From: a virus
Taxonomy: Duplodnaviria > Heunggongvirae > Uroviricota > Caudoviricetes
IMG/VR virus record: IMGVR_UViG_3300013094_000021
Length of the DNA stretch: 64,000 nucleotides
Strand: one strand, 5' to 3'
In this document: positions 1 through 64,000 of the stretch, in pieces
Position numbering within the stretch: the stretch's first letter is position 1
Layout of the letters: each line of letters starts with the position of its first letter
The notes under the pieces: model-generated
Seen by the model: the letters and a program-made list of their open reading frames with translations, nothing else
The model's database searches: none
What the model was told of the DNA's origin: nothing
Position numbers and translations under genes: made by a program

Positions 1-219
1 TATATTTTTGACGAAAAATCCCTTGGAATTATTCAGGGACATCTCCATCTTAATAAAATAGATAATTTAACCCCTAAAAGATACGTTGTCGGTCAACTTT
101 GCAAATCCGACCATCATAGAGATAAGAATAAAAAAGGCGGAAACTACTTGCTTTTGGGCGAGAATGGTATAGAATATAAAGCGTTATGAGTTGTCTAGCT
201 AATAAATAAAACAATTAAT

Positions 220-687
220 ATGAAAATTCAAAATATACTATTAAAAGGAGTCTATGATAAACCCACTGGAAGGTATATTTATTCCTATTCTTGTTCTGTA
301 TGCGGAGCGAAAAAGACCGCCAAACTTGGACGTAAAACATACTTAGGGACTGGAAAGTGCAAAAAGTGTATAGCCACCGAGCAATCCTATAATTCAGAAC
401 AAAGTGGCAAGCCGCTTCATTTTAAAGGCAAGCCAGTTTCTTTTAGATTTTACAATAGAGAAGAGGTCGAACACGCCGAATCAATTAGAGCTTTTTGCAG
501 AAAACATCCAGAGCTAGGAGAAAACGCCAGCTATCATTTTTCAGGCGTTATTAATGGAAAAAGACTCCACTATAAAGGATGGTTACTTGGAAGCAATAAA
601 GTCAAGCTAGAAGAAAGTAAAGTAAAAACAATAGAAATGACATTAGTAAATAGGGCGATAATTAATCTCGATTATTTCAAAAAGTAA
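220..687 (+). CDS. hypothetical protein with CxxC...CxxC zinc-finger-like cysteines
   Basis: 155-aa ORF on the dominant strand, A-rich leader; CSVCG...CKKC pairs. Confidence 0.4.
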   Translation: MKIQNILLKGVYDKPTGRYIYSYSCSVCGAKKTAKLGRKTYLGTGKCKKCIATEQSYNSEQSGKPLHFKGKPVSFRFYNREEVEHAESIRAFCRKHPELGENASYHFSGVINGKRLHYKGWLLGSNKVKLEESKVKTIEMTLVNRAIINLDYFKK

Positions 688-697
688 TTCTATATCA

Positions 698-901
698 ATG
701 ACGCGCACCTGTAAATTTTGCGGCAAATCCGGCCTTTTATGGAAAACCATTGACGGCAAGTGGAAATTATTTGACAAAACAGGCGGCAAGCATTATTGTA
801 TTAAAGAGAAGCCTAAAAGTGATTTTGATATTAAGAGTTTTAGAAAAGATGCGGCGATAGAAAAAGCATTAAAGATATTTAAGAAGAAATTAATAAAATA
901 A
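698..901 (+). CDS. small zinc-ribbon protein
   Basis: 67 aa, CKFCG...HYC motif, follows previous gene by 10 nt. Confidence 0.35.
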   Translation: MTRTCKFCGKSGLLWKTIDGKWKLFDKTGGKHYCIKEKPKSDFDIKSFRKDAAIEKALKIFKKKLIK

Positions 902-940
902 ACTCACTGTGACGCTATTTTTAGTGTAAATAGTGTCATT

Positions 941-1492
941 ATGAGTTTTGCTAAAGATTTAACCGGAATGGTATTTAATGATTGGACTGTCTTGTTCAGA
1001 AACGGTAAGTATAAAACCGGCTGTGCATTATGGAGATGTAAATGTAAGTGCGGGTTTGAAAAAGACCTGCGAACTTTCCACCTAACAAAGAGCTACAGTA
1101 AACAATGTAGAGGGTGTGCAGATAAATCAGTAGGGATAAAATCACGAATCATTTTTGATACTGGTCTAGCCAATAACCAATTTTGGGGTAGAAATGTTTT
1201 ATATGTAGCGAGAAAAAGAAAAATACCTGTTTTATTAACACTGGACGAAGCCAATGATATATTCTTCTCACAAGATAGAAAATGCGCTTTAACCGGCGTT
1301 AGCCTAAAATTTCCATCTAGAAGAAAAGATAATAATGGAACGGCATCATTAGATAGAATTGACTCATCAAGACCGTATGAAAAAGGTAATGTTCAATGGG
1401 TTCATAAGGATGTAAATAAAATGAAAATGGATTTTGAAAATACATATTTTATTGAAATTTGCAAACTAGTATCTAATAAATTTAAATCTTGA
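941..1492 (+). CDS. HNH homing endonuclease
   Basis: C-terminal LDRIDSSRPYEKGNVQWVHKDVNKMK matches HNH motif of phage homing endonucleases. Confidence 0.65.
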   Translation: MSFAKDLTGMVFNDWTVLFRNGKYKTGCALWRCKCKCGFEKDLRTFHLTKSYSKQCRGCADKSVGIKSRIIFDTGLANNQFWGRNVLYVARKRKIPVLLTLDEANDIFFSQDRKCALTGVSLKFPSRRKDNNGTASLDRIDSSRPYEKGNVQWVHKDVNKMKMDFENTYFIEICKLVSNKFKS

Positions 1493-1521
1493 CTTTGTAA
1501 TGTAATATATTATCATTAAGT

Positions 1522-2094
1522 ATGAATTATTGGTGGACGGCTGACAGTCATTTTTTTCACAAAAATATTTGCCTATATTGTAATAGGCCATTTGAATCTG
1601 TAGAAGAAATGAATGAAAAAATTATTGAAAATTGGAACAATAATGTCAAAGATAATGATATTATATTTTTTCTAGGTGATTTTGCTTTTGGAAACGAAAA
1701 ATGTATTGGCGAGCTTTTATTAAGACTAAAAGGAAATATTAAAATAATCTTTGGGAACCACGACAAAACCCTAAGAAAGTTTGCTAAATGTGATTTTAAA
1801 TCTGGTCAGTATTATAATTTACATAAAAGAATTGAGTTTTTAGGAGACTATAAAGAAATTTCAGTAAATAGCCAGTATATTACTTTGTCTCATTATGCTA
1901 TGCGCGTATTTAATCGTTCTCACAGAGGCGGCTGGCAGTTGTGGGGCCATTCTCACGGCTCTTTACCTGACGACCCACACAGTTTAAGTTTTGATGTAGG
2001 GGTTGACTGTCATAATTATTCTCCAATTAATTTTGAGCAAGTAAAAGAAATAATGAGTAAGAAACAATTTAAACCAATAGAACATCACGCTTGA
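1522..2094 (+). CDS. calcineurin-like metallophosphoesterase
   Basis: WWTADSHFFH, FLGDFAFGN, GNHD, GHSH motifs of the metallophosphatase fold. Confidence 0.65.
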   Translation: MNYWWTADSHFFHKNICLYCNRPFESVEEMNEKIIENWNNNVKDNDIIFFLGDFAFGNEKCIGELLLRLKGNIKIIFGNHDKTLRKFAKCDFKSGQYYNLHKRIEFLGDYKEISVNSQYITLSHYAMRVFNRSHRGGWQLWGHSHGSLPDDPHSLSFDVGVDCHNYSPINFEQVKEIMSKKQFKPIEHHA

Positions 2095-8039: not shown

Positions 8040-8771
8040 ATGGAATTAATTAGCAAAAATAAAAAAATATTAATTTTTTCGGACACTCACCAAGACGTTG
8101 ATAAGGCTGAAAAGATAATCAAAGAGGAGAGCGCGGATATAAATATTCACGTTGGCGACTTTTTTGATTCGATGTTTCATAACAATCAGGGGTTTATTCA
8201 AAAAACCTGCAAATTTATAGAAAAATATAGCAAATTAGAAAATCACTATTTCCTCTTTGGGAATCACGATTTGCCATATTTATACGAAAACCAATTCACG
8301 ATTTGCTCTGGTTTTGAAATTGTTAAAAAGACATATATAAATAATTCCTTGGATGTAAAAAAAATAAGAGAAAAATTTCTATGGTATATTTGGATTGACG
8401 ACTTTCTTGTTAGCCACGCAGGTCTTCATCCTTATTTTCTTCCTGAAAAAATGGAGATAAATAAGGTAAATATAGATAAATTTCTTAAAGAGGAACAGGC
8501 CGAATGCAATCATAAACTTTTAAATGGCTTTCCGCATTGGTTTTTCTTGGCTGGAAAAGCCAGAGACGGAAAACAAAAGTTTGGCGGCTTGACTTGGCTA
8601 GATTTTGATGATGAATTCAAAATAATAGAGGGAATTCCTCAAATCGTAGGACATACCTTTCATAGTAGGATTGGATGCAATAGAGGTAATTTTTGCATTG
8701 ATACCAATCTAAATTATTATTTAACCATAACCAATGGAAAATTTGAGGTTAAAAATTTCATTGACATTTAA
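8040..8771 (+). CDS. calcineurin-like metallophosphoesterase (second copy)
   Basis: ILIFSDTHQD, HVGDFFDS, FGNHD motifs. Confidence 0.6.
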   Translation: MELISKNKKILIFSDTHQDVDKAEKIIKEESADINIHVGDFFDSMFHNNQGFIQKTCKFIEKYSKLENHYFLFGNHDLPYLYENQFTICSGFEIVKKTYINNSLDVKKIREKFLWYIWIDDFLVSHAGLHPYFLPEKMEINKVNIDKFLKEEQAECNHKLLNGFPHWFFLAGKARDGKQKFGGLTWLDFDDEFKIIEGIPQIVGHTFHSRIGCNRGNFCIDTNLNYYLTITNGKFEVKNFIDI

Positions 8772-8796
8772 AAAAAAGCCTTTACTATAAAAACAA

Positions 8797-9162
8797 ATGC
8801 AAGAAATAAAAGTCGCAAAAATGGTAAAAGGCAACGCCATCATCTTCACGCCAAAAGAAGTTGGGGCCGAAAAGCCATTTTCCGAATCAGCACCTAAATT
8901 AATCGCTGAAAAATCGGAAAACGCAAATAAAAAAATAAATGAATATAAATGCTGCATTTGCGGCGGCGTTGTCTCTCTAATGAGAGCGGCAACACTTTTT
9001 GAGATTGGCCGCGCTCCAGAACTTTTTAATTGTATGGCTTGCGCTAGTAGCGCGGACGTTAAAAAAATGAAAGCTATACAATCTAAATCCACAATACTTA
9101 TCCCAGCTTTTATAAAAAGAGAAAATGAATGCTCATTTGCTCACATTACGGAGATTGATTGA
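8797..9162 (+). CDS. cysteine-rich hypothetical protein
   Basis: CCICGG...CMAC zinc-ribbon-like. Confidence 0.4.
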   Translation: MQEIKVAKMVKGNAIIFTPKEVGAEKPFSESAPKLIAEKSENANKKINEYKCCICGGVVSLMRAATLFEIGRAPELFNCMACASSADVKKMKAIQSKSTILIPAFIKRENECSFAHITEID

Positions 9163-9428
9163 TGAAAAAAGATTTGATTCCAGAAGAAAAATCTGTTGCA
9201 ATTTTAGATGAAGGATGCTATAATGTCCTCATAACTAACGAAGGAAAGATAATAGAAAATAATCTTTTCTTTCGCAAAGAGTCGGCGGTTTCTAGGTTTT
9301 TCAACCTGTTGGTCGAGTTTTCAAGTTCAACTCTTGGAATGGATGATTTGCAAAAATTCATAAAATTAGGCTTATTTGAAAACGGAAAAACGAAAATATA
9401 CTTTTCAGAGCCAAAAATAAACAAATAA
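9159..9428 (+). CDS. hypothetical protein
   Basis: 89-aa ORF, start overlaps previous stop. Confidence 0.35.
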   Translation: MMKKDLIPEEKSVAILDEGCYNVLITNEGKIIENNLFFRKESAVSRFFNLLVEFSSSTLGMDDLQKFIKLGLFENGKTKIYFSEPKINK

Positions 9429-9432
9429 TTAT

Positions 9433-9639
9433 ATGTTAAAATCAGGTGATAGAGTCAGAGTCCTAAAAAGAGGAGAAAATTCATTGGTTTTCAATGAAAT
9501 CGGCAAAGGCGTTGTCCTTGCCGTTGCGAGCGGAAAGCATTCTGATTGGATTAAATATCTTGACAGAGATTGGCCTAGCGTTGAATGCGGCGAATGGATT
9601 TGTGTAAATTCAAGTCGCGTTCAGGTTAGAAAAATTTAG
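9433..9639 (+). CDS. hypothetical protein
   Basis: 68-aa ORF. Confidence 0.3.
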   Translation: MLKSGDRVRVLKRGENSLVFNEIGKGVVLAVASGKHSDWIKYLDRDWPSVECGEWICVNSSRVQVRKI

Positions 9640-10030
9640 TTTACTTATAGCTAAATTTTAATCTTTAAAATCTATAAAAAACTTATTCCAAGCTGAAGAA
9701 GGTGAACACTCTCGTTTTGAAGACATTCCAGTTGAAAAACTTTGCAAAGACGCCTCTCATAATCCTCCGACTCACCTACATATTCCATACGGAAAAATTT
9801 GTATTCATATTTGTCCGACCTGCCGCCGAAAGCTAATAATTCAGCCTCCGCAAATTTCTTTCTAATTTTTCAGAAATTCCTTGACAGTCTATTTTTTTTC
9901 TTTATTATGTATTTGTCGTTAATAAAAAACAAAAAAAATAAAAGAAAAAATAATATGATTGCAATTATCCTTGTCGTCGCTTTCGGAGTTAGTCTAGCTA
10001 ACCGGATTTAACAAAAAAGACAATAAAGTT

Positions 10031-10492
10031 ATGGTATTTTTAGAAAAAAATATTCTTGATATAGAAAATGGCATAATCTGTCAGTCGGTAAACTGCCAAA
10101 AAGTTCAGGGTTCCGGTTTGGCTAAACAAATAAGAGATAAGTGGCCGGATGTTTATAGCGGATATATTGAGTATTCTAATCGTTTCCGCATGGACTTTGA
10201 GAGGCTTGGCGAATATCATATTGTCCAAGTAGGTAAAAAATTAGCTGTTTTAAGCATTTTCGGCCAGCTTTTTTATGGAAACGATGGCAAGCGATACTCC
10301 GATTATTCCGCTATTAACTCCGCTCTTAAAAGCATTGCTAGAGATAGATATTATATGAAGGAAACTTATTATTTTCCATACAAAATTTTTTCAGACCGTG
10401 GCGGAGCCGATTGGAGCATTGTTAGCAAAATGATTGAATATTATTTTCCCAATGCAATAATCTGCAAGCTTCCAGAAAAACAATTCTCTTGA
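10031..10492 (+). CDS. macro domain protein (TARG1/OARD1-like ADP-ribose-binding/processing)
   Basis: GIICQSVNCQKVQGSGLAKQIRDKWP resembles macro-domain N-terminal signature. Confidence 0.5.
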   Translation: MVFLEKNILDIENGIICQSVNCQKVQGSGLAKQIRDKWPDVYSGYIEYSNRFRMDFERLGEYHIVQVGKKLAVLSIFGQLFYGNDGKRYSDYSAINSALKSIARDRYYMKETYYFPYKIFSDRGGADWSIVSKMIEYYFPNAIICKLPEKQFS

Positions 10493-10516
10493 CAATAAAA
10501 AAATCCTCTTTATAAT
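10489..10516 (+). promoter_or_regulatory. sigma70-type promoter (TTGACA-16-TATAAT), representative of >60 near-identical copies
   Basis: cttgacaataaaaaaatcctctttataataa; same extended motif upstream of most genes. Confidence 0.6.
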
Positions 10517-10547
10517 AATCCAGACAAAACAAAAAATCTAAAAAACT

Positions 10548-10763
10548 ATGTTCTCAAACGCTAAAATTAAATTCACCAAAGGCAAAGCTATTATCGAAAT
10601 TCCAGAGAGCATTGCCAAGAAACTATATCCTAAACAGGAAAAGGAAGCCGATATTTTCCTGACAGTCACCAATGGAATTCTTCAAGGCTCCGCAAAGTCG
10701 CCAGATACCTTCATTCCGCTAACCGAGGTTACGGAAGAGGATTTTGTCAAGCAAAAAGATTGA
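10548..10763 (+). CDS. hypothetical protein
   Basis: 71-aa ORF behind consensus promoter. Confidence 0.35.
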   Translation: MFSNAKIKFTKGKAIIEIPESIAKKLYPKQEKEADIFLTVTNGILQGSAKSPDTFIPLTEVTEEDFVKQKD

Positions 10764-10849
10764 TAAATAATTAAAGGAGGGATAAAATTCAGAATAATCT
10801 TGACAATAAAAAACAAATCCTTTAATATAAACGGACGAATAAAAAAACA

Positions 10850-11713
10850 ATGAAAACCAATCTACGCAAAGCAACTAAAGACTTCATGCTCGGAACCGAC
10901 CCCGAACTATTGCTTTCTCACGGCGGACAACCTGCAAAGTTTTTCGGACAAGCCCATGGAAAATTCGGACTTGACGGGAACGGCAGAACTTGCGAATTGA
11001 GAGTTGACCCTTCCGCCAATCCTCTCGAATTGGTTTCTCAAATCCACACTCTTTTCAAGGATTATGCCAAGAAATATCCAGTCTCTCTTAAATTCAATTG
11101 GGATGCTGGCTCGTTTGTTCACGGCTTTCCTATCGGCGGACACGTTCATTTTGGCGTCTCAAAGTTCAACCTAGACCACGCAACCGCAAGCGAAGTTATT
11201 TCAAATTATTGTGGCGCGCTATCTCTATGTATTGAAGATACAAAAGAGGCGAAAAGCCGCCGTCAAATCAAGGAATATGGCGGCTATCACGATTTCAGAC
11301 CCCAAGCGCACGGTTTTGAACACCGCAGTTTTTCAAGCTGGCTAACCAGTCCGGCGGTTGCTTCGGCGGTTTTGTGCCTCTGCAAGACGGTAATGTTTGA
11401 AATGCTCAACAATAAAGCGTTTTCTCCTACTCAATATTTCGACGCCAATACCTTCCACAAGGTAGAAAAGCAAGACATTAAAAAGAAATTTCCTTACGTT
11501 TGGAAAGAAATAACCGAAATGCAGCTTTATCCTAGATACAAAAAGCACATTGACGTTATCCATTTTCTAATTACAAAAGATTTGAGTTGGTATCCTAAAA
11601 ACTCTCTTAAAGAGGTTTGGGGGCTAACAGAATTCGCAGTTAAGGAAGAGCGAAAGATGATTTCACTAGACGAAATTTGGAAAACCAACAACAAAAATGA
11701 GCATAATTTTTAA
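10850..11713 (+). CDS. YbdK/GCS2-like carboxylate-amine ligase (amidoligase)
   Basis: N-terminal GTDPELLL (GxDxE) and GGHVHFGV (HxHxG) motifs typical of glutamine-synthetase-like amidoligases; paralogue of 20169. Confidence 0.5.
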   Translation: MKTNLRKATKDFMLGTDPELLLSHGGQPAKFFGQAHGKFGLDGNGRTCELRVDPSANPLELVSQIHTLFKDYAKKYPVSLKFNWDAGSFVHGFPIGGHVHFGVSKFNLDHATASEVISNYCGALSLCIEDTKEAKSRRQIKEYGGYHDFRPQAHGFEHRSFSSWLTSPAVASAVLCLCKTVMFEMLNNKAFSPTQYFDANTFHKVEKQDIKKKFPYVWKEITEMQLYPRYKKHIDVIHFLITKDLSWYPKNSLKEVWGLTEFAVKEERKMISLDEIWKTNNKNEHNF

Positions 11714-12080
11714 ACAATCCGACTTCAATTTAGATAAAGTCAAAAAACTCTGCGCCTTTGGCGAGCAGAAACTTAAATTCAAATACTGGATTTACGGTTT
11801 GGGGGACTTTAATTCTAATCCGCCTGTTAAAATTGAACACAATTTTGAAATATTTAAAGAGGGTGGTCAAAAATCCATCTATAAATTTTTCAAAGGCAAC
11901 GGTATTGCCGTTCAATTTGAGGATAACAAAAAGGACGATTATATCAATATCGGCTTAAGAAAAGATGTTCGCGAAGACGTTTCGGTTTCCGCCGCCATCG
12001 TGAAAACTTTGATTCAATTCAATGAAGGCTTGATTGATTTAAACGAAAAGCCTGAAAAATTGGTTGGCATACCTAAATAA
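11697..12080 (+). CDS. hypothetical protein (paralogue of 29326..29742)
   Basis: shared SxDFNL... and IGLRxDxRxDxxxSAAIV segments with 29326 ORF. Confidence 0.45.
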   Translation: MSIIFKQSDFNLDKVKKLCAFGEQKLKFKYWIYGLGDFNSNPPVKIEHNFEIFKEGGQKSIYKFFKGNGIAVQFEDNKKDDYINIGLRKDVREDVSVSAAIVKTLIQFNEGLIDLNEKPEKLVGIPK

Positions 12081-12149
12081 ACAAACATAGAAAAAATCTT
12101 GACATTGAAAAATAATCCTTCATAATAAACTCAACAACAAAACAAATAT

Positions 12150-12602
12150 ATGGCTGAAAACAAAAAAACATTGGAACTGTGCAAACTAACAATTTCATCC
12201 TCCCCCGAAAGAGGTTTTGAAATCTTCCTTCAAAGCGAATATGACTTCAACAAGCTTTTCGCCGCCAAAGGTGATAAAACCTTCAATCTCGGCGGGGTAA
12301 AATGCGGCATTCCTCGCAATGGCGATGGCTATCAGTTGCAAGGTGTTAGAGGTTACTTCAACACCCATTCTGAAACATTTGAATACGAAGGTTTTCTCAA
12401 CCTTTCTCTCCTACTCGCCAAGGATATTAAAAACGGCGTAACCTTCAATTTCGGCGTTTTTCCTATCAGTCAGGAAAAGATTCAGCAATACGCAGAAAAC
12501 TTCAAGCAACAGGTTAAGATGATTTATCTGACCTACATGAAGACCATCAAATATTCGGTTGTTTTCAATACTGTCACGATTGAAGAAGAGCAACACGATT
12601 AA
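12150..12602 (+). CDS. hypothetical protein
   Basis: 150-aa ORF behind consensus promoter. Confidence 0.45.
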   Translation: MAENKKTLELCKLTISSSPERGFEIFLQSEYDFNKLFAAKGDKTFNLGGVKCGIPRNGDGYQLQGVRGYFNTHSETFEYEGFLNLSLLLAKDIKNGVTFNFGVFPISQEKIQQYAENFKQQVKMIYLTYMKTIKYSVVFNTVTIEEEQHD

Positions 12603-12610
12603 TCTTAAAT

Positions 12611-13528
12611 ATGTTCAAATTTATTGACAAAATCGGCCTTGAAATAGAAGGCGGGTGGAGCAAGTCTAGGAGCGACTTAACTCCCGACGGAAGCGTTAGA
12701 CTTCAAGACTTCGACGATTCAGAGGTTGCAATGTGCGGCGAGCTTATCAGCAAGCCATTCGCGTCAAAAGAACTTTGCGAGAAATTTATCTTGTCAAACT
12801 GGCCGACTTCCACGCAACCTAAATGCGGCTTTCATATCCACTTCTCTTTAAAGGATATCTCCTATTATGTCGCTTTAATGTCGCCGGAATTTCTAAATTA
12901 TTTTTGCGATAAAATGTCCGAATTCGGAAAAAGTTATCCAATTCAAAACGAGCAATTTTGGGACAGGCTCGCCGGAAACAACAAATTTTGTCGCAAAGCT
13001 TACGAAGGCGAATTTCAAATCAGAGCCAAGAAAAAGAATGACTGCAATAGATATACCATTCTTCATTATGCTTATGGAATTCATAAGACGATTGAATCAA
13101 GACTTCTTCCGACTTTTGTAAGCGCGGAAACTGCATTGGCGGCTTTTAACGCCACCATATCAATTGTAGAAGAATATCTATCTAAAAAAGAAATCAAGCC
13201 ATTCAACTTTAAAATCGAGGATAATGTCTCCAACGAAGACCATACCTTTGAAAAGCGCGACGAGGAAACTATTACAGCCGAAATTCCGAAACAAAAGCCG
13301 ATGACGAAATTTAATTTCTTTGAGGCTAAACTTGGAAAAAACAAGTCTATTCCCAATAGACTTAAAAATAAAAAGAATACTTATGAAGGCGGAAATTTTG
13401 TATCTGTTTTCACAGACTCATACAATAATGGCAACGAAACCCCAAAGTTTTCTTACAAAAAGGTAACAGCCTATGAGGACTATATAACCACCGAATTAAC
13501 TTCCACTCCTAGCGTTATTATTTATTGA
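12611..13528 (+). CDS. YbdK/GCS2-like amidoligase
   Basis: IGLEIEGGW (GxExE) and CGFHIHFSL (HxH) motifs; paralogue of 36252. Confidence 0.5.
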   Translation: MFKFIDKIGLEIEGGWSKSRSDLTPDGSVRLQDFDDSEVAMCGELISKPFASKELCEKFILSNWPTSTQPKCGFHIHFSLKDISYYVALMSPEFLNYFCDKMSEFGKSYPIQNEQFWDRLAGNNKFCRKAYEGEFQIRAKKKNDCNRYTILHYAYGIHKTIESRLLPTFVSAETALAAFNATISIVEEYLSKKEIKPFNFKIEDNVSNEDHTFEKRDEETITAEIPKQKPMTKFNFFEAKLGKNKSIPNRLKNKKNTYEGGNFVSVFTDSYNNGNETPKFSYKKVTAYEDYITTELTSTPSVIIY

Positions 13529-13569
13529 AGAATAATCGAAAATAAAAAAATTTAAACAAATAAAAAATC

Positions 13570-14457: not shown

Positions 14458-14522
14458 AAAAACTTGACATAAACAAAAAAAACTTTAATATATATCAAAC
14501 GACAAAACAATAAACAAAAAAA

Positions 14523-15131: not shown

Positions 15132-15146
15132 GTTTAGCTAAACAAG

Positions 15147-15182
15147 TCCGCCGGAAACATTAATTCCGGCGGATTTTTTTTA
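15147..15182 (+). terminator. rho-independent terminator
   Basis: tccgccgg-aaacattaatt-ccggcgga followed by T8. Confidence 0.6.
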
Positions 15183-15258
15183 AAAAGGCTTGACTAACGA
15201 AAAAAATCCTTTAAGATATAACCAGTTAATCGAAACAATCTAAAAAAATAAAAAAATC

Positions 15259-16101: not shown

Positions 16102-16122
16102 AAAACAAATAATAGAACTAAT

Positions 16123-46381: not shown

Positions 46382-46546
46382 ATGAATAAATTTGAAGAAC
46401 TTCTATTGTTTAATGTTTTCATTTGGATTGTTTGCGCCGCTGTAAGCGTTAAACAAAAAGATTTTACTGGAATTATAGTGGCTGGGGTGCTTACTGCGCT
46501 TTGTGGCTGCCGCGCTTTGTTCGCCAAGAAACTTTTTGAGAAATGA
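46382..46546 (+). CDS. small membrane protein (54 aa)
   Basis: leaderless behind consensus promoter; read manually. Confidence 0.3.
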   Translation: MNKFEELLLFNVFIWIVCAAVSVKQKDFTGIIVAGVLTALCGCRALFAKKLFEK

Positions 46547-46550
46547 GGTT

Positions 46551-47054: not shown

Positions 47055-47085
47055 CAATTAAAATAATTCCTTCATAATTAAATCC

Positions 47086-47361: not shown

Positions 47362-47409
47362 ATATTTAAATAATTTGACAAATCAAATTATTTATTTATA
47401 ATAATAAAC

Positions 47410-56850: not shown

Positions 56851-56978
56851 GAGTGCGTGGCGAAATGCAAAGACGCAAGCTGGAGATGCTACTTGTAGCG
56901 GAAACCAGATAGTGTGCGACCTGAAATCGCGAGCAGAACTCGAAACACTTGCAGGTTCAAATCCTGCCGCACTTAACA
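56851..56978 (+). ncRNA. 128-nt tRNA-like structured RNA (acceptor-like stem + canonical T-arm flanking a ~100-nt branched insert); candidate Y-RNA-like / tRNA-mimic
   Basis: 5' gagtgcg pairs 3' cgcactt; T-arm gcagg-TTCAAAT-cctgc with G53-C61; internal hairpins gctac-ttg-gtagc, ctgg...ccag, agtgt...acact; no CCA, no 7-nt anticodon loop. Confidence 0.45.
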
Positions 56979-57081
56979 AAAATAAAATAAAAAAATATGA
57001 AAATGTCCTTCTATTTTGACCGCGCCAATGGATTTTTCCGCCGCAAATGGAAATTCACCAAAAAGAAATAATTAAAAAAAT

Positions 57082-57324
57082 ATGGACGCCCTTCAACGCA
57101 TTCGCCAGATTGAATCGGAGATAACCAATGCCGAAATTCAATACAACGCATCGGCCATCGCTTTCCAAAGCAAATTAAATAAATTAATTTCTGAAAAGTC
57201 ATCCCTAGTCTTGATGATGGCTAAAATCAAAGCGGCCCAAATGACGATTGACGGCCAATCAGCAGAGCAAAAAGCCCCCCAGCCGCAAGCCAAAGACGGC
57301 ACGAATCGAATTAAATTTAATTAA
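57082..57324 (+). CDS. coiled-coil hypothetical protein
   Basis: 80-aa ORF. Confidence 0.35.
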   Translation: MDALQRIRQIESEITNAEIQYNASAIAFQSKLNKLISEKSSLVLMMAKIKAAQMTIDGQSAEQKAPQPQAKDGTNRIKFN

Positions 57325-57380
57325 AAAAAATCCTCAAAATAAATAATTGACAAATTAGATTTGTTCTTTATTATTAGAGC

Positions 57381-57833
57381 ATGAAACGACTAATCGCCAA
57401 AATTGAAGCGCGGAACAAAGTAAATTCTGAATGCAACCGGCTTTTGCCGATAATGATTGACTATTTCCGCCCGTTTGTTGGTAAAAAGATTTTGATTGCC
57501 GGTAATGAACTGGCTTCAAAGGTGAAGGATAATCTGCCGAAAAGTGAATTGTTTTTTTATCACGACAGAAGCAGTTATTATATCTATTTTAATTTGCGCG
57601 CGGAAAGCCGCCACGCGGACGGCAATGGTTATCAACGCGCGGAACAAGTTATCACAATTGGCGAGATTAAAGACGGCGTTTTAATTCGCCTGAATGAAAC
57701 TCCCCAGTCTTGGCGCACAAATTACAACGCGGAAGAGGTCATCGCGGCCCGTAAAAAATGCGAAGAGGCGCGGGATGCGTTGCGCCAAGCTGAAAACGGA
57801 TTGCATGGGTTCGGCGAGCATGATAGTTTTTAA
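57381..57833 (+). CDS. hypothetical protein
   Basis: 150-aa ORF, leaderless. Confidence 0.4.
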   Translation: MKRLIAKIEARNKVNSECNRLLPIMIDYFRPFVGKKILIAGNELASKVKDNLPKSELFFYHDRSSYYIYFNLRAESRHADGNGYQRAEQVITIGEIKDGVLIRLNETPQSWRTNYNAEEVIAARKKCEEARDALRQAENGLHGFGEHDSF

Positions 57834-57883
57834 TTAAAAAAGAATTAGTTGACAAATAAAATTTCTCCTTTATTCTTTACTTC

Positions 57884-58306
57884 ATGCAAGTGCAATACAA
57901 TGACGGAGGGCGGCATCACTATTTCACCGCGAAGAATGTTGGTGATTGCGTCTGCCGCGCAATCTGCATCGCTCTCGAAAAGAATTATTTAGAAATTTAT
58001 GGCATGATTAATGCCATGTCGAAAAAAAATGAGGGCAAGCTGCGGGCGCGGAACGGCGTCTATAAGAAAACTTGGCAAGACGTAAAAGATTATCTAATCA
58101 GTCAGGGTTGGCAATGGACGCCCACGGCTGGCATCGGCCAGCGGGAAAGATTAAAATTAAATGATTCCTTTCCTAAATCCGGCACGTTCATTTGCCAAGT
58201 GTCCAAACATTTGACAGTCGTAAAAGATGGAGTCATCCACGACACCCACGATTGCTCACGCGGCGGCAATAGAATGGTATATGGTTATTTTACAAAAAAG
58301 AGTTGA
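57884..58306 (+). CDS. hypothetical protein
   Basis: 140-aa ORF, leaderless. Confidence 0.4.
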   Translation: MQVQYNDGGRHHYFTAKNVGDCVCRAICIALEKNYLEIYGMINAMSKKNEGKLRARNGVYKKTWQDVKDYLISQGWQWTPTAGIGQRERLKLNDSFPKSGTFICQVSKHLTVVKDGVIHDTHDCSRGGNRMVYGYFTKKS

Positions 58307-58336
58307 CAAAATAAGTTTTTCATTTATCATTCTTTT

Positions 58337-58711
58337 ATGCTTTTTCATAAGCAAATTTATCTTCCGCCCGAAGCGAAAGCTTTAATCGGGCGAAATTTGA
58401 ATTTGTCTTATTCTCACCATGCTAAATTGGCTTGCGTAAATGACAGATACGGCATAATCTCAAAGCCGCCTTTTCAAATAGGAATTAATTTAGATAATTT
58501 AATCGAAGTTGAAACCGAAAACTCCGTTATCGTTAAAGTTGTTGTCCGCCAGAAATATGACTCAAAATTTGACATTGCATTAGCAATCTCAATCGAAGGA
58601 AAAAACTCCACGGTCAAATCAGTTTGGCTTAACGATAGCAGCGACAAGCATTTTACATTGGATAGGTCAAAGTATCAACCTTTCCCGAAGTCTTTGGGCT
58701 TGGCAATTTAA
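58337..58711 (+). CDS. hypothetical protein
   Basis: 124-aa ORF. Confidence 0.4.
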   Translation: MLFHKQIYLPPEAKALIGRNLNLSYSHHAKLACVNDRYGIISKPPFQIGINLDNLIEVETENSVIVKVVVRQKYDSKFDIALAISIEGKNSTVKSVWLNDSSDKHFTLDRSKYQPFPKSLGLAI

Positions 58712-58722
58712 TTAAGTAAAAA

Positions 58723-58902
58723 ATGAAATCTTTTTTGAAATGCGTTTTTGTTATGTGGCTTTTGGCGATGGCTTTAGCTATTCCAATTAGATTTTATACT
58801 TTCGGACGATTTGATTTAATAAACGATTTTTTTGATTGTTCTGGCGCTTCCCTATTTATCGCTTTGCCCTATGGTTTTGTCATGTGGTTAACTAAAAAAT
58901 AA
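58723..58902 (+). CDS. small membrane protein (59 aa)
   Basis: read manually; two hydrophobic helices. Confidence 0.3.
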   Translation: MKSFLKCVFVMWLLAMALAIPIRFYTFGRFDLINDFFDCSGASLFIALPYGFVMWLTKK

Positions 58903-58940
58903 TTAGTTGACTTTTAAATAAAAAGCCTTATCTTATCCGC

Positions 58941-59156
58941 ATGAATAAAGCAATTGACTCTGAAATGGCGCGGATTTTAAAACATCAATCAATTTTAAAT
59001 GAAATTGACATGATTGACGGGCAGCTATCGCCTGAAAATCTTAATTGTGATGGAGAAATCACTCGCGAGCAAGCGCAATTAAAAGCAAATAAACTTTGGG
59101 CGCGCCGAGCCAAATTGGAAAGTGAAATTGGGCGCAAGGTGGAATATAAAGGATAA
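58941..59156 (+). CDS. hypothetical protein
   Basis: 71-aa ORF, leaderless. Confidence 0.35.
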   Translation: MNKAIDSEMARILKHQSILNEIDMIDGQLSPENLNCDGEITREQAQLKANKLWARRAKLESEIGRKVEYKG

Positions 59157-59430
59157 AAGCAAATAATTTTATTATGAAATCCGTTCAAAATTCAGAGCAA
59201 ATCAAACCTAGGGAACGGGCCGCGATACTCGCGAAGGATAAAAACCACTCGTGGGGAAAGGACGGATTTTGCTTGCATTGCTTCAATGTTCACCAAACTG
59301 ATTTTCGCTGGAATGATTTGTGCAAATTTTTAATGAAATAATTATTTGACAATTTTTTATTTATGCTTATCATTGTTGTTGTCGCGGTTGTATCAATGGC
59401 CGCTTTAAAATAAAAACAAATAAAAAAATC

Positions 59431-59715
59431 ATGCAAGCCATCGTTACAAAGTTCTTCCCATGCACGAACACGAAGCCCGACCGCATTCAGGCGAAAGCCG
59501 CGCGCGGAAGCAAATTCTTTTCCGTCAATTCTGAAAAAATGGTGAAATTCTCTGGCAATAGCGAAGAAAACCACCGGACGGCAGCGCGCGAATTGTGCGA
59601 ATTCTTTTGTCGCGAAGACGTTGCCCGCTGCGGCGGCAGCAAATGGATGGGCGAACTCTTTACGGGTCAATTGCCGGACGGAAGCTACGCACACGTTTTC
59701 AACCCCAATGATTAA
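59431..59715 (+). CDS. hypothetical Cys-rich protein
   Basis: 94-aa ORF. Confidence 0.35.
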   Translation: MQAIVTKFFPCTNTKPDRIQAKAARGSKFFSVNSEKMVKFSGNSEENHRTAARELCEFFCREDVARCGGSKWMGELFTGQLPDGSYAHVFNPND

Positions 59716-59927
59716 TTAAATAAATAATTTTCGTTAAACCAGCTACGGCAAAAATGCGAATTGTGTTCCGCAAGTCAAAGGTTTAAGCTGCGGAAATAGC
59801 AAGATGGAGGCTCAATCTTGGCGAAAAATAAAATAGGGGTAAGAGGCGCCCCTTAAAAATAACTTGACAAATAAAAAGAAACTCTTTATCATTTTCTCTC
59901 TGTTAGCAAACAAATAAAAAAATAAAT

Positions 59928-60053
59928 ATGAAAAAACTCATCCTAGCTGCAATCCTCGTTTCCCTCGCTCTCCCGTCATTCGCGCGCGGCGGACACGGCG
60001 GCGGTCATCACAATCACAAGACGACCGCAACCCCGCACACGTTCAAACTTTAA
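59928..60053 (+). CDS. small secreted His/Gly-rich peptide (41 aa)
   Basis: MKKLILAAILVSLALPSFA-RGGHGGGHHNHKTTATPHTFKL; promoter upstream, terminator downstream. Confidence 0.35.
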   Translation: MKKLILAAILVSLALPSFARGGHGGGHHNHKTTATPHTFKL

Positions 60054-60077
60054 AAATTGTCCGTTTGCTTGTTTGTT

Positions 60078-60116
60078 CCCTCGCTCGGCCCAATAAGCTG
60101 GGCGAGGGTTTTCATT
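60078..60116 (+). terminator. rho-independent terminator
   Basis: ccctcgc-tcggcccaataagctgg-gcgaggg + TTTTcaTTT. Confidence 0.55.
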
Positions 60117-60149
60117 TAATTAAATAATAAATAATCTCGAAATAAATAA

Positions 60150-60178
60150 TTGACAAATTAGATTTGTTCTTTATTATT
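60150..60178 (+). promoter_or_regulatory. consensus promoter, 39-nt exact duplicate of the one at 57335..57373
   Basis: aaataaataattgacaaattagatttgttctttattatt identical at both sites. Confidence 0.55.
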
Positions 60179-60184
60179 GTTGTG

Positions 60185-60326
60185 TCGCGAGTATTGGACG
60201 TTAGGCGAAAGCCAAAAAACAGGAAAGCGGCAAGCACGGCGAAACTTAAACTTTGCGCGTCCCGTGGATAAATAAGACTGGGAAAGTTAATCAATCCGCC
60301 AGCGTCCAAAACTGGCGGATTTTTTA
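60185..60326 (+). ncRNA. candidate sRNA (~140 nt) between duplicated promoter and intrinsic terminator
   Basis: no ATG-initiated ORF; terminator ccgccag-cgtccaaaa-ctggcgg + T6 at 60296..60326. Confidence 0.4.
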
Positions 60327-60378
60327 TTTAGAAAAATAATTAGTTGACAATTAACTAAAAACAATTACAATCTTTATT

Positions 60379-60627
60379 ATGAATGCGAACGAAATTTACC
60401 TTGGAAATTGGGGGACAGTAATTTTCCAAAATGAACAACACAAAAACTATTTAATACTCGCGAAAAATTTGCGCGACATTCAAAGTTCAATTGCAAGCTG
60501 GCATGGCGAATGGCTCTCTAATGAAATGGAAAAAAACTTTCTAAAATCGGAGGCCGAAGCAAAAGCCAAATGCGATAAACTCTGGGAATTAATTCCAGAT
60601 AAAGATAATTTGTCAAAATCTCATTAA
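60379..60627 (+). CDS. hypothetical protein
   Basis: 82-aa ORF. Confidence 0.35.
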   Translation: MNANEIYLGNWGTVIFQNEQHKNYLILAKNLRDIQSSIASWHGEWLSNEMEKNFLKSEAEAKAKCDKLWELIPDKDNLSKSH

Positions 60628-60666
60628 ATAATTGACAAATAAAAATAAATAAATTACAATTCAAAT

Positions 60667-60939
60667 ATGTTCAATTATCAATTCAATTCATTTTCTGTTG
60701 GCATGGGGCTGCAATGCGTTTGCGATTGCTCTGCGGCGGGCGCGGTTGACGAACAAGTTAGCTTTTGGGCTCGAAACCTTATCCGGCCCTCGGAGGCTAC
60801 GCCCGAAGCAATCAAAAAAGAATTAAAAGAATATGGGGCGTGGGACGAAATTGAACTTCAAGACGACGAAAAGAATTGGGAGCGAATTGTCTGGATTGCG
60901 GCTTGCAACATGAAGGAACAATGCCCCGAATTAAATTAA
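60667..60939 (+). CDS. hypothetical protein
   Basis: 90-aa ORF. Confidence 0.35.
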   Translation: MFNYQFNSFSVGMGLQCVCDCSAAGAVDEQVSFWARNLIRPSEATPEAIKKELKEYGAWDEIELQDDEKNWERIVWIAACNMKEQCPELN

Positions 60940-61014
60940 AATAATTAGTTGACAAATAAAAACAATTACTTTATTATTTGTTGTCGGTCAAAAACAAATA
61001 ACAAATAAAAAAAT

Positions 61015-61200
61015 ATGGAAAAAATCGAACAAGCTCTGAAAAAATTCCCCAAGGCAAAGCGCATCGCGGTCGAAAACTTCACAAGCATGGGCGCGGGCCG
61101 GTGGGACATGGCGGCGGCGATGAATTTAGAAGCTGATAGGGCAGCTTACGGATGGAACGCCCACACTGTAAACGCAATCAAGTGGGTGATGAAAAATTAA
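61015..61200 (+). CDS. small hypothetical protein
   Basis: 61 aa; followed by terminator. Confidence 0.35.
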   Translation: MEKIEQALKKFPKAKRIAVENFTSMGAGRWDMAAAMNLEADRAAYGWNAHTVNAIKWVMKN

Positions 61201-61217
61201 ATAAAATAAAATCTCAC

Positions 61218-61246
61218 GGGCGCAATTAAGTTTGCGCCTTTTTTTA
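61218..61246 (+). terminator. rho-independent terminator
   Basis: gggcgcaa-ttaagt-ttgcgcc + T7; preceded by atctcacggg as at 61611. Confidence 0.55.
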
Positions 61247-61304
61247 TTGACAAATAAAAATAATTCTTTATCCTATTATTGTTAGTTAAAAATAAACAAA
61301 CAAA

Positions 61305-61598
61305 ATGCAAATCAAATTAATCCATTCCAAAACGGGCCGCGTCTTTTCAGAGGGCGAAACCGTCCAAACTATGCGCGGCGAAACCGGAACCCTCGAAACT
61401 ATCCGGCCCGACGAAGGGCGGAACGGTAAAGTTTACGTCCGAATCGCGGGCAAATCATTCACCCAGTGTTTTTACCCTTCGGTCATCGGATGCGAATTTT
61501 CATCGGGCGAAGTTGAAATGTTGGATGGTGTCCCATACGTTAAGCCCGCCGCATGGTATGACGAACAAGCTGAAATGGAACGGGCCGGACGACAATAA
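61305..61598 (+). CDS. hypothetical protein
   Basis: 97-aa ORF; followed by terminator. Confidence 0.4.
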   Translation: MQIKLIHSKTGRVFSEGETVQTMRGETGTLETIRPDEGRNGKVYVRIAGKSFTQCFYPSVIGCEFSSGEVEMLDGVPYVKPAAWYDEQAEMERAGRQ

Positions 61599-61617
61599 AA
61601 GAATTAAAAAATCTCAC

Positions 61618-61647
61618 GGGCGAGCCTAAAAACTCGCCCTTTTTTTA
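61618..61647 (+). terminator. rho-independent terminator
   Basis: gggcgag-cctaaaaa-ctcgccc + T8. Confidence 0.55.
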
Positions 61648-62130
61648 TTTGTTTTTTTCTTAAAAAAGTAATTGACTTTTTTTAATTAATTCTTTATTCT
61701 ATTCCCGACCTTTGAAAGACAAGGGAGGCGCACCGCCCCTGCACTAATTCCTTTATCGTTAATTTAGCAAACCATGTGCCAACATGACAAAAAACAAAAT
61801 CCGCCGTAAAGCAAAGCCCATGCCAAGACAAAATAAATTGAAAAAAATTAATTCTTCATTAATTCTGGCATGGAAATTGAATTCCTTTTAAAACGATTTT
61901 GTTAATAATTAAAATTTGAAAAAAAGCCAATGAATAACAATAACTGTAAATCATCCGGCGTCGTCATACTGCCGGAAAATAATAGGCCTCAATTTTATCG
62001 TTAAATAAAAGTGTCTAAAAATTGGAATAAACGAAACTTGGCATGGAAAATGATTTGTCCAAAAATAAGACAATAAAAATAATTCAATAATTAGTTGACT
62101 AAAAACAATTAATTCTTTATTCTGTGGCAA

Positions 62131-62667
62131 ATGAAAACAATTTCTCAAAACGAATTACTTAAAATCATTTCCGAATCAAAGGGCGCAATTCCGGTGGGCT
62201 TGTTTAGTGTCACCGATGCGCGGGCGCGGAAAACTGGCAATCCATACGGAAAAATTTTCAAACTTTGTCGGGCCGTGGGTTTTGTGGGCGCCAATTATCA
62301 ACGGGCCGTTGAAAATGAAGCCGCGCGGCAGGGTGAAAATGCAAGCGAATTTCAGGCGGAGAGTTTGCCTTGGGGAAATTGGCTTATTCAAAACAAAGTT
62401 ATTGAACACAAGGGCGAATTGTATCTGCGGACACAAACGGCGCCCGGCCAGCGCCGCAAACAACCCGCTCGCGTCACGGGATACTTGTCCGAATCTCTTC
62501 AAATTTTGTCCCGCGAACAAGTGAAGCCCTTTCTGCCCGAATCGCGTGAATCATCCAAACAACAAGACGAGGCGGGACTTTCCGAAACTGTCTGGGTCAG
62601 AACATATAAATTTAATTCAATTAAAAAAATCCGCATTAATGGCAAAACTTACTGGCTGAAAAATTAA
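62131..62667 (+). CDS. hypothetical protein
   Basis: 178-aa ORF, leaderless behind consensus promoter. Confidence 0.4.
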   Translation: MKTISQNELLKIISESKGAIPVGLFSVTDARARKTGNPYGKIFKLCRAVGFVGANYQRAVENEAARQGENASEFQAESLPWGNWLIQNKVIEHKGELYLRTQTAPGQRRKQPARVTGYLSESLQILSREQVKPFLPESRESSKQQDEAGLSETVWVRTYKFNSIKKIRINGKTYWLKN

Positions 62668-62761
62668 TTAAAAAATTAGTTGACGAAAAAAATAAATACT
62701 TTATTATTTAACCAATGGCACGACGCCAGAAAACAAAAACAATAAACAAACAAAAAACATT

Positions 62762-63826
62762 ATGTCACACGAAATTCTGAAAAACGACAAACAAGAGGGC
62801 CGGACAATGGCTTGGCATGGCAAAACTATCGTCAACCCTGATTTGACGCTGGCGAATTGCCATTTGAACCCGAACCGGGCCGACGACGGAAAACCCAAGT
62901 GGGATTATGTTGGCAAATCGGTTGACGTTGACGGAAAACCCACTGGTTTTCACATTCTGGGCGTGACCGATGGCGCGACGACTGAAAACGAGGACGGGCA
63001 GGAATTCCCGCTTGTCATTGGTGACAGCTACAATCCCGTGAAATTCAAACCCGTGACAAACGAAAAATTGATTGAAATTTTGACGCCCGCTGTGGCGGAA
63101 CACGGGTTGACCCTCGAATCATGCGGGACTGTGAAAAATCGTGGTCGCCAGTTTTTTTCATTCGCGATGGTCGGGAATGAATTCAATGCCGCGGGCCGTC
63201 CGTTCAATTCGTTTTTCAATGTTGGCAATGGTAACGATAAATCCAGCCCGCTGTGGGTTAATACGTCCAATATTTGCACGGTTTGCAACAATACTTTCAC
63301 GATGAACATGGACTTGTCGGGCTTCGTGATGGAAGTTAAAAAAACGAAGTTTTCGGAATTGAGAATCACAAACTTGGGCCGCGCGATTGAAGCCATGCTT
63401 TCCGGTCAAAAGGAATTCGCCGCGCAACTTAACAAACTGGCGGGTTATGAATGCGACGAAAACAAGGCGCGCGAATTTTTCGCCGGTTTTCTCGCGACTT
63501 CGCCCGATGCGCCCTTGTCAACTCGTTCCCTGACTGCCCTTGAACGCCTCACCCAGCTATTCAAAGCGGGCGCGGGCAATGATGGAAATGATTTTTCCGA
63601 TGTTTTCCAAGCGGCTACTGATTTTTATTCGCACGAAGCCGCAAGTGCGGCGGGCGATGAAGCCGCAAATTGGAAAAATTACGTTTCAAGTGAATTCGGC
63701 GCGGGCCGCAAAGCGAAACAAGATGTTTGGGAAGCAATCGGGACGGAAAAAACCCGCAAGGGAATGCTGGCAATCGGAAAAAAAGTTTTGAAAATCACGG
63801 CGGATAATGCGCGCAAAAGCGAATAA
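62762..63826 (+). CDS. hypothetical protein, possibly DUF932-type phage/plasmid-like protein
   Basis: 354 aa; N-terminal MAWHGKT resembles the conserved WHGLG block of that family (weak, from memory). Confidence 0.3.
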   Translation: MSHEILKNDKQEGRTMAWHGKTIVNPDLTLANCHLNPNRADDGKPKWDYVGKSVDVDGKPTGFHILGVTDGATTENEDGQEFPLVIGDSYNPVKFKPVTNEKLIEILTPAVAEHGLTLESCGTVKNRGRQFFSFAMVGNEFNAAGRPFNSFFNVGNGNDKSSPLWVNTSNICTVCNNTFTMNMDLSGFVMEVKKTKFSELRITNLGRAIEAMLSGQKEFAAQLNKLAGYECDENKAREFFAGFLATSPDAPLSTRSLTALERLTQLFKAGAGNDGNDFSDVFQAATDFYSHEAASAAGDEAANWKNYVSSEFGAGRKAKQDVWEAIGTEKTRKGMLAIGKKVLKITADNARKSE

Positions 63827-63846
63827 ACTTTCGCGCAAATAACAAA

Positions 63847-63885
63847 GCGGTGGGGACTAGCAATCCCCGCCGCCCTTTTGATTTT
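63847..63885 (+). terminator. rho-independent terminator
   Basis: gcggtgggga-ctagcaa-tccccgccgc + cTTTTgaTTTT. Confidence 0.5.
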
Positions 63886-64000
63886 GTCAGGATGCCGCGC
63901 CGGTCAGGATGCCGCGCCGGTCAGGATGCCGCGCCGGTCAGGATGCCGCGCCGGTCAGGATGCCGCGCCGGTCAGGATGCCGCGCCGGTCAGGATGCCGC
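63886..64000. repeat. GC-rich 17-bp tandem repeat (gtcaggatgccgcgccg), at least 6.7 copies, truncated by window end
   Basis: direct reading; perfect copies. Confidence 0.9.

Follow-up and report, generated by a model that had tools for sequence, protein, structure and literature searches.

The 64,000-nucleotide (nt) stretch of the Caudoviricetes record IMGVR_UViG_3300013094_000021 that we analyzed, called the window below, carries on one strand an array of about 70 promoter-like elements, many of which end a few nucleotides before a start codon. We consider it likely, from the sequence and its comparison with related phages, that this array is read by the host through a sigma-type promoter, giving leaderless mRNAs in about half of the units and mRNAs with A-rich leaders in the rest, in all cases without Shine-Dalgarno (SD) sites. 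We take the window to be an accessory or early region that belongs to a large, uncultured phage of freshwater type.

The promoter array and its strand bias

Exact TTGACA hexamers occur 83 times on the plus strand and 17 times on the minus strand, 21 being expected from composition. The strict rule TTGACA-N16/17-TAnnnT gave 55 matches on the plus strand and none on the minus strand; in 200 first-order Markov simulations it averaged 0.64 matches and never exceeded 4. A two-block position-weight matrix yielded 71 plus-strand sites and a single minus-strand site at 14 bits or more, and 64 and 0 at 20 bits or more. These counts bear out the more than 60 copies proposed by an earlier, sequence-only reading of the window, and by neither rule is the motif equally frequent on the two strands. 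Both instances quoted in that reading are present, with TTGACA at 54878 and 52501 and ATG at 54912 and 52535; the base that precedes the first of them is g, and not c as quoted.

The consensus, aaATTAsTTGACAAaT-N-tTCTT-TAtnAT, lies downstream of an AT-rich flank and has a spacer of 16 nt in about three quarters of the promoters and of 17 nt in the rest (50 and 19 sites in a generic scan, which also gave one site each with 15 and 18 nt). The -35 element is exactly TTGACA in about 60 of the 71 sites and TTGACT or TTGACG in the remainder, and the -10 hexamers are TATTAT, TATAAT, TAATAT and TATCAT, with CATAAT in about eight cases. The presence of a -35 element, of a -10 element at 16–18 bp, of a pyrimidine at -1 followed by a purine at +1, and a gene-oriented placement above chance support in silico the identification of the motif as a canonical bipartite sigma70-type promoter. 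We also considered that it could be a translation signal resembling a ribosome-binding site (RBS), and rejected this possibility since the motif is bipartite with sigma70 spacing and lies at variable distance from the start in leadered genes; in addition, the same motif drives tRNAs and RNAs devoid of open reading frames (ORFs), which argues for a promoter and not for a translation signal.

The claim that almost every gene is preceded by a promoter holds only near the right end of the window, where 25 of 34 genes (48–64 kb) have one at most 60 nt upstream, versus about 55 of 127 in the window as a whole and none in 1–8 kb. The exact duplication of a 39-nt promoter is real, and the copy at 60140 had been placed correctly; the other starts at 57337 rather than 57335. 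Logan contigs break inside both copies, and an independent JGI assembly spans both. In at least eight cases (for instance at 10490, 17848, 18790, 30147, 47052, 56815 and 58304), the stop codon of the upstream gene is a TGA located within the TTGACA of the next promoter, indicating that the cassettes are very tightly packed.

Start-codon spacing and SD-free initiation

In 32 of the 71 promoters, the first downstream ATG lies exactly 6–7 nt after the -10 hexamer, a distance found at 2.75% of random positions (binomial p about 7e-31). In sigma70 promoters the -10 element spans -12 to -7, and a 6-nt gap therefore places the A of the ATG at +1. We divided the 71 promoters into 37 leaderless-type units, where starts up to 9 nt after the -10 element and non-ATG codons were included, 18 leadered units (about 6–35 nt) and 16 others, the latter preceding two tRNAs, about six ORF-less stretches, three mini-ORFs and long leaders, with one promoter lying inside an ORF. 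The leaderless-type class comprises 30 units with ATG at 6–7 nt, four with ATG at 8–9 nt, two with GTG and one with TTG, so that 34 of its 37 starts are ATG. In these 37 units transcription should begin at the start codon or within 0–3 nt of it, and the earlier proposal of a sigma70-type promoter combined with such starts is thus supported in silico for this part of the array, also by the layout kept in relatives and the Y(-1)R(+1) step. The further claim of more than 20 such starts in 48–64 kb is just reached, with 21 promoters there followed by a start at 6–7 nt (20 ATG and 1 GTG).

The predicted transcription start is independently supported by promoters that lack a following ATG. In 75 such promoters, pooled from the window phage and the three relatives described below, position 7 after the -10 element is a purine in 80% of cases, versus 35–57% at neighboring positions, with a pyrimidine just before it, at position 6, in 65%; the Y(-1)R(+1) step hence falls where the leaderless ATGs have their A. 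Units of the leaderless class have C or T at position -1 in 88% of cases, and where the distance is 6 nt, position 7 is a purine in 100% and position 6 a pyrimidine in 93% of cases. We observed in addition that leadered or non-coding transcripts tend to have G at the predicted +1 and then TTAG, TTG or TCG (GTTAG, GTTGTCG, GTCG), as seen at promoters 9881, 27269, 48080, 59346, 60150, 60949 and 61247, and that this G-initial motif recurs in all four phages.

Four lines of evidence argue that the called leaderless-type start codons are the real ones. Upstream extension of the ATG and GTG ORFs (6–9 nt) is blocked by an in-frame stop, often the TGA inside TTGACA, the sole exception being unit 51657, which has an in-frame TTG 12 codons upstream. 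The next in-frame start usually lies 8–70 codons downstream; Pfam domains begin at residue 9 in the helicase and at residue 25 in the RtcB RNA ligase; and an independent JGI gene caller, blind to promoters, agreed on the start codon in 23 of 24 cases. Moreover, the first 40 nt of the predicted leaderless mRNAs are weakly folded, with a mean minimum free energy (MFE) of -2.3 kcal/mol versus -5.2 kcal/mol for internal windows (p = 3e-5).

SD motifs are essentially absent from both classes of genes. GGAG or GAGG precedes 3 of the 94 leadered or internal starts and none of the 33 leaderless ones, versus 5.2% of random 18-nt windows; at most of the positions -20 to -1, G accounts for 2–12%, and A makes up 44–56% at nearly all of them. 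Nor did any of 130 called genes in the relatives have the SD core motif, and the same pattern is seen in a more distant phage (L006). A preference for A at -3 to -6 (56%) marks the leadered class and is missing from the leaderless one (15% A at -3); such a preference has been described for SD-free initiation in Flavobacterium (PMC6847099). The phage thus appears to use two SD-free modes of initiation, one of them being leaderless. Leaders in the first half of the window are A-rich and devoid of SD sites, as previously noted, with lengths of 6–35 nt rather than 20–30 nt.

The absence of SD motifs throughout suggests that the host probably does not rely on SD pairing to initiate translation, and the earlier premise of an SD-using host is therefore not supported. 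The best-known SD-poor phylum fits badly as a host, since Bacteroidota-type promoters (TTTG at -33, TAnnTTTG at -7) are not enriched: TAnnTTTG occurs 37 times on the plus strand and 52 times on the minus strand, and the bipartite form 2 and 6 times, which led us to discard this promoter type. SD-scarce taxa also include Verrucomicrobiota (PMC10783764), and in Akkermansia, Cappable-seq revealed -35/-10 logos and about 10% leaderless start sites, with SD sites in about 4% of genes (PMC4782308). By analogy, one may hypothesize, and only that, a Verrucomicrobiota-like or Akkermansia-like host, which would fit all three traits. Matches of the window proteins to cultured phages do not exceed 41% identity and are scattered over phages of many different hosts, and are thus uninformative in this respect. 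Phage promoter type and initiation signals can nevertheless serve to narrow down a host, and here they speak against hosts with Bacteroidota-type promoters and against SD-dependent ones.

Relatives, known systems and rival explanations

Relatives were found by helicase homology (about 47% identity) in a 198-kb NCBI contig (L003), a 40-kb JGI contig (L005) and a 13-kb ENA contig (L008). The motif TTGAC-N-TAnnnT occurs on their gene strand 27, 22 and 16 times, respectively, and 0, 0 and 1 times on the other strand. By manual count, ATG lies 6–9 nt after the -10 element in roughly half to two thirds of these sites, and under a looser -10 rule the four phages pooled have ATG at this distance in 79 of 154 promoters. 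In each of the four phages the helicase is leaderless-type, the gaps being 6, 7, 9 and 7 nt. The public call of the L003 helicase is about 17–21 codons too long, reading through the promoter (10001–10063), while the homologous ATG lies 7 nt after the -10 element; it illustrates how gene callers tuned to RBS motifs can mis-set starts in this clade.

All that the four phages share is TTGACA, the 16–17 nt spacing, TAnnnT, the 6–7 nt gap and ATG. The spacer or flank preceding the -10 element is particular to each lineage (tTCTT in the window, TTGACAATTCTATTT in L005, and AATTCAT with a 17-nt spacer in L003), indicating that the CTTTATTATA extension, with its CTTTA part, is specific to this phage lineage and not a general requirement. 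Cassette homogenization or a lineage-specific binding factor could account for it. The phages have almost no small-gene orthologues in common, while the helicase and DUF932 genes remain syntenic; such poor sharing is hyperplastic-region behavior. A helicase scan of IMG/VR found no relative, and a scan of the same resource for the extended motif followed by ATG returned only two singleton matches, on unrelated contigs without arrays.

We favor a mechanism in which a one-strand accessory region would be expressed from about 70 strong primary-sigma-type promoters, presumably read by the host RNA polymerase holoenzyme. At about half of them, the polymerase would start at the A of the AUG or 1–3 nt upstream, and ribosomes would bind the resulting leaderless mRNAs directly at the 5'-terminal AUG; the remaining units would have short, unstructured, A-rich leaders lacking SD sites. 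Terminators being rare, nested read-through transcripts would probably coexist with these mRNAs, so that the gene-by-gene transcription proposed by the sequence-only reading stands for promoters and not for transcripts. The promoters would represent a repeated cassette that each phage lineage has homogenized to its own flavor. That the genes of the array are expressed early is a plausible guess, based on the host-type promoters, the small ORFans on one strand and the lack of structural genes in the window.

Four points weigh against this mechanism. Two scans of genome assemblies for a host, one with the relative's helicase and one with a TnpB located upstream of the window, gave no match. The window is part of a genome, and a phage sigma or translation factor may be encoded elsewhere in it. 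Every gene classed here as leaderless may also be translated inside read-through RNAs, in which case the leaderless route is perhaps not the main one. Finally, 7 of the 37 units start 8–9 nt after the -10 element or use GTG or TTG, and fit a strict leaderless model less well.

Among known systems, T4 early genes have leaders with SD sites, unlike the genes described here, half of which would have no leader and none of which has an SD site. T4-type phages are nonetheless a close parallel in another respect, as repeated early promoters with stem-loops (PeSLs) front small ORFs in their hyperplastic regions (PMC4122927, PMC2839356). As in those phages, small ORFan genes on a single strand of a large phage are fronted by many near-identical host-sigma70-type promoters, the repeats resemble each other enough for recombination, and tRNAs and auxiliary genes occur in the same region. 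Unlike in PeSLs, a terminator stem-loop lies upstream of the promoter at just 4–5 of the 71 sites, all within 60–62 kb; since most copies lack the stem-loop half, we did not class them as PeSLs. The window showed no T4 core genes.

Promoters of the Thermus phage phiYS40 rest mainly on the -10 element, and its Deinococcus-Thermus host is itself rich in leaderless genes. A large share of the mRNAs of phiYS40 (and of P23-45) are reported to be leaderless, these being middle and late transcripts in phiYS40 (PMC3594737, citing Sevostyanova et al. 2007). phiYS40 resembles the window phage in being large and AT-rich and in having a -10 element directly upstream of ORFs, and differs from it in that here the -35 consensus is found in almost all copies and the promoters look early and host-type. 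In Deinococcus-Thermus and Actinobacteria, TAnnnT at a fixed distance of a few nt upstream of the start is the signature of leaderless genes (PMC12340547, PMC3160421, PMC4007540); unlike the AT-rich element of the window, with its consensus -35 and lack of SD sites, these taxa are mostly of high GC, have weak or absent -35 elements and use SD sites on leadered genes. The lambda cI mRNA transcribed from PRM is a leaderless phage message whose first nucleotide is the A of its AUG and which is translated in that form (PMC10491246), but it is a single regulatory transcript in an SD-using host, unlike the genome-wide design seen here. The A-rich, G-depleted upstream regions devoid of SD sites are like those of SD-poor Bacteroidota (PMC6847099) and of SD-scarce taxa (PMC10783764), while, unlike in Bacteroidota, TTTG/TAnnTTTG promoters are not enriched, and the joint occurrence of -35/-10 promoters, leaderless starts and scarce SD sites is like that in Akkermansia (PMC4782308). 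Thus, the predicted SD-free and largely leaderless gene expression of this phage is clear but not unprecedented; the combination of consensus -35/-10 elements, exact leaderless spacing in about half of the units, absence of SD sites and conservation across a divergent clade was not found in the literature searched.

The best-surviving rival, which we consider possible though doubtful, holds that the motif is primarily a PeSL-like recombination cassette that shuffles small ORFs, promoter activity being secondary. The exact 39-nt duplicate, spacer flavors specific to lineages and even to local sub-regions, which suggest homogenization, the scarcity of shared small-gene orthologues next to a syntenic helicase and DUF932, and the PeSL precedent (PMC4122927) all fit such a role; the stem-loop half is present at only 4–5 sites, however, and contigs of the same population, being 100% or 99.94% identical, are too close for a test of indel boundaries. 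A recombination role is in any case compatible with the host-read promoter array, and not an alternative to it.

An unlikely reading is that translation occurs mainly inside long read-through RNAs, where the AT-rich promoter doubles as an SD-free initiation region and the spacing merely reflects compaction. In its favor, just five convincing intrinsic terminators were found, all in 60–64 kb, and read-through transcripts are thus to be expected. In addition, 94 genes with A/U-rich, SD-less contexts show that the host initiates on such leaders, and the stop codons embedded in at least eight TTGACA hexamers attest to extreme compaction. Compaction alone, however, would fix neither the 6–7 nt distance nor the pyrimidine at -1; the spacing is kept across lineages despite diverged promoter sequences, and the A preference of leadered starts at -3 to -6, which leaderless ones lack at -3, points to a different initiation context.

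That a sigma factor or RNA polymerase encoded by the phage reads the motif, in place of the host primary sigma, appears quite improbable. A lineage-specific factor could co-vary with the conserved spacer or flank of each lineage, and only part of the genome was seen; but the elements shared by the four phages are exactly those of the universal primary-sigma consensus (TTGACA, 16–17 nt, TAnnnT and a purine at the seventh nt), and no sigma or polymerase domain was detected among the 127 window ORFs scanned or in the Pfam listings of flanking loci. Phage translation factors and ribosomal proteins were not found in the window either. Lastly, although 56 weak promoter-like matches are expected in 20 kb of this 36% GC genome under a loose rule, chance or mis-called starts are refuted by the minus-strand, simulation and spacing controls, as well as by the agreement with independent gene calls and Pfam domain boundaries.

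More tentatively still than for the recombination cassette, and without counting on it, we can envisage a clade of large phages with an early or accessory program of cassettes made of a promoter and an ORF without untranslated region, infecting hosts with canonical -35/-10 promoters and SD-independent, leaderless-tolerant ribosomes, in Verrucomicrobiota or another little-studied phylum. The conserved spacer or flank could then be the operator of a global phage switch or a substrate for cassette shuffling, and the roughly 150 promoter variants in four phages would provide natural material for testing leaderless expression outside Actinobacteria and Deinococcus-Thermus. These two groups and the archaea account for most of what is documented on leaderless expression at large scale, and another host group would here be added. 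If the predicted starts are right, the clade expresses about half of its accessory genes leaderless and none through SD pairing; in itself, the array offers a naturally occurring range of compact, graded expression cassettes.

Gene content, putative non-coding transcripts and feature coordinates

The window has 36% GC, is about 83% coding and carries nearly all of its ORFs on the plus strand. JGI metagenome 3300013093 and two SRA runs contain the same sequence, in contigs of up to 116 kb; cultured phages gave no megablast match to the window. Its products include nicotinamide phosphoribosyltransferase (NAMPT), a phosphoribosyl pyrophosphate (PRPP)-synthetase-like protein, RtcB, a Ro60/TROVE protein (27379–28686, adjoining RtcB), a clamp-loader-like AAA+ ATPase, a UvrD-like helicase, two phiEco32-type COOH-NH2 ligases, several glutamine amidotransferases, a T4 endonuclease V-like glycosylase, a YopX protein, a DUF932 protein and a GIY-YIG homing endonuclease on the minus strand. 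A further 99 small ORFs matched just 7 Pfam and 16 PHROG families, and no structural genes were seen in the window. The coordinates of promoters, units and terminators are given in Table 1.

Table 1. Positions of the promoters, leaderless-type and leadered units, non-coding transcripts and terminators in the window
Feature	Position	Strand	Details
Array of 70 of the 71 promoters	8761..62707	+	density increases toward right end
Isolated promoter-like site	771..799	+	inside ORF 698-901; 22.9 bits; function doubtful
Near-leaderless units, start 8-9 nt after -10	8761..36254	+	promoters 8761 (ATG 8797), 21861 (ATG 21898), 34143 (ATG 34179), 36214 (ATG 36252)
Fifteen promoters with short A-rich SD-free leaders (about 6-35 nt)	10489..45243	+	10489, 10800, 12099, 14464, 15190, 17847, 18789, 23717 (NAMPT), 28689, 30146, 32713, 39785, 40792, 42772, 45216
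Leaderless-type unit	21211..21247	+	ATG 21245, 6 nt after -10; 62 aa
Near-leaderless PRPP-synthetase-like gene	promoter 22846	+	TTG 22884, 8-9 nt after -10
RtcB RNA ligase, leaderless-type	26037..26073	+	-10 CATAAT; ATG 26071 at 6 nt; 395 aa
Leaderless-type unit	32191..32227	+	ATG 32225 at 6 nt; 78 aa
Three successive leaderless-type units	36879..37984	+	promoters 36879/37431/37947; ATG 36913/37466/37982 (6, 7, 7 nt)
Leaderless-type units	43976..47412	+	promoters 43976/46105/46347/47051/47375; ATG 44010/46139/46382/47086, GTG 47410
Two promoters, each driving a tRNA	47908..48193	+	promoters 47908/48080; tRNA-Met/Ile-like (CAT) 47967-48042, tRNA-Arg (TCT) 48118-48193
Leaderless-type units	48455..49608	+	promoters 48455/48806/49572; ATG 48490/48841/49606
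UvrD-like helicase (479 aa), leaderless-type	50177..50213	+	TTGACA-16-TATTCT; ATG 50211 at 6 nt
Nine successive leaderless-type units	51657..54914	+	promoters 51657, 51853, 52501, 52776, 53235, 53582, 53900, 54166, 54878; starts 51693, 51888, 52535, 52811 (GTG, YopX), 53269, 53616, 53934, 54200, 54912
Two promoters, ORF-less downstream	55443..56300	+	55443/55827, followed by about 340/440 nt without ORF
Leaderless-type units	56328..58943	+	promoters 56328/57347/57849/58303/58907; ATG 56362/57381/57884/58337/58941
Promoter and 133-nt ORF-less RNA	56814..56978	+	RNA 56846-56978; 11-bp terminal stem, GGUUCAAAUCC T-arm-like hairpin
Exact 39-nt promoter duplicate, copy 1	57337..57375	+	drives leaderless-type gene 57381
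Three further promoters with A-rich leaders	59864..61274	+	59864, 60949, 61247
Exact 39-nt promoter duplicate, copy 2	60140..60178	+	drives ORF-less structured RNA 60184-60330
Leaderless-type units	60344..62133	+	promoters 60344/60632/62095; ATG 60379/60667/62131
Promoter, leaderless-position 21-codon mini-ORF and 5' hairpin (TGGC-N5-GCCA)	62680..62780	+	overlaps start of DUF932 gene 62762
Only clear intrinsic terminators (n = 5)	60078-60108, 60293-60321, 61218-61239, 61618-61639, 63847-63873	+	four just upstream of a promoter, PeSL-like

Among the promoter-driven non-coding transcripts, the tRNA with a CAT anticodon has a G1-C72 pair, lacks a GGG/CCC anticodon stem and has an encoded CCA; by these features, it is an elongator Met or lysidine-type Ile tRNA and not an initiator. 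The 133-nt RNA has an MFE of -43 kcal/mol (z -2.45) and received no call by ARAGORN or Rfam; it may act, in the manner of a tRNA or a Y RNA, as a partner of the Ro60/TROVE protein encoded by the phage. Strong promoters are followed by 150–450 nt without an ORF at 55477–56300, 60184–60330, 61706–62090 and 42441–42660, the second of these folding well (z -2.84) and carrying a terminator at its end. Promoter-driven ORF-less regions had no Rfam match at E<=1 and are candidates for new phage non-coding RNAs. The sole good minus-strand promoter (50103–50130; TTGACG-16-TATTAT followed after 6 nt by ATG) is divergent from that of the helicase and precedes a 7-codon ORF, beyond which lies a GC-richer stretch devoid of ORFs; it possibly directs a divergent small RNA.

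The leader of the DUF932 gene opens with a conserved CAATGGCA-N-ACGCCAGAAA element (62707–62780 in the window, about 15820–15862 in L003 and about 7030–7082 in L008). In L003 and L008 its nucleotides are kept (hairpin TGGC-N4-6-GCCA), and the peptide and reading frame are not. It is possibly a regulatory 5' element, or a means of loading ribosomes through a leaderless upstream ORF.

The genes at 10850–23675 and 35478–36209, which encode the two phiEco32-type COOH-NH2 ligases, class-I and class-II glutamine amidotransferases, the PRPP-synthetase-like protein and NAMPT, look like a peptide- or metabolite-modification module together with an NAD-salvage module. Two mobile elements run against the direction of transcription: the GIY-YIG/NUMOD3 homing endonuclease (38032–38766, minus strand) and an IS605-type TnpB located about 8 kb upstream of the window in a JGI contig (L013, 845–1927, minus strand). 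At the window end (63886–64000), a perfect 17-nt tandem repeat, GTCAGGATGCCGCGCCG, is present in at least 6.8 copies and runs past the last position. It has 71% GC versus 36% for the genome, and JGI and Logan contigs of the same phage break there; the repeat may represent iterons or a genome end. In the distant relative L006, a 27-nt array of at least 13 copies (816–1281) adjoins the small-gene cluster.

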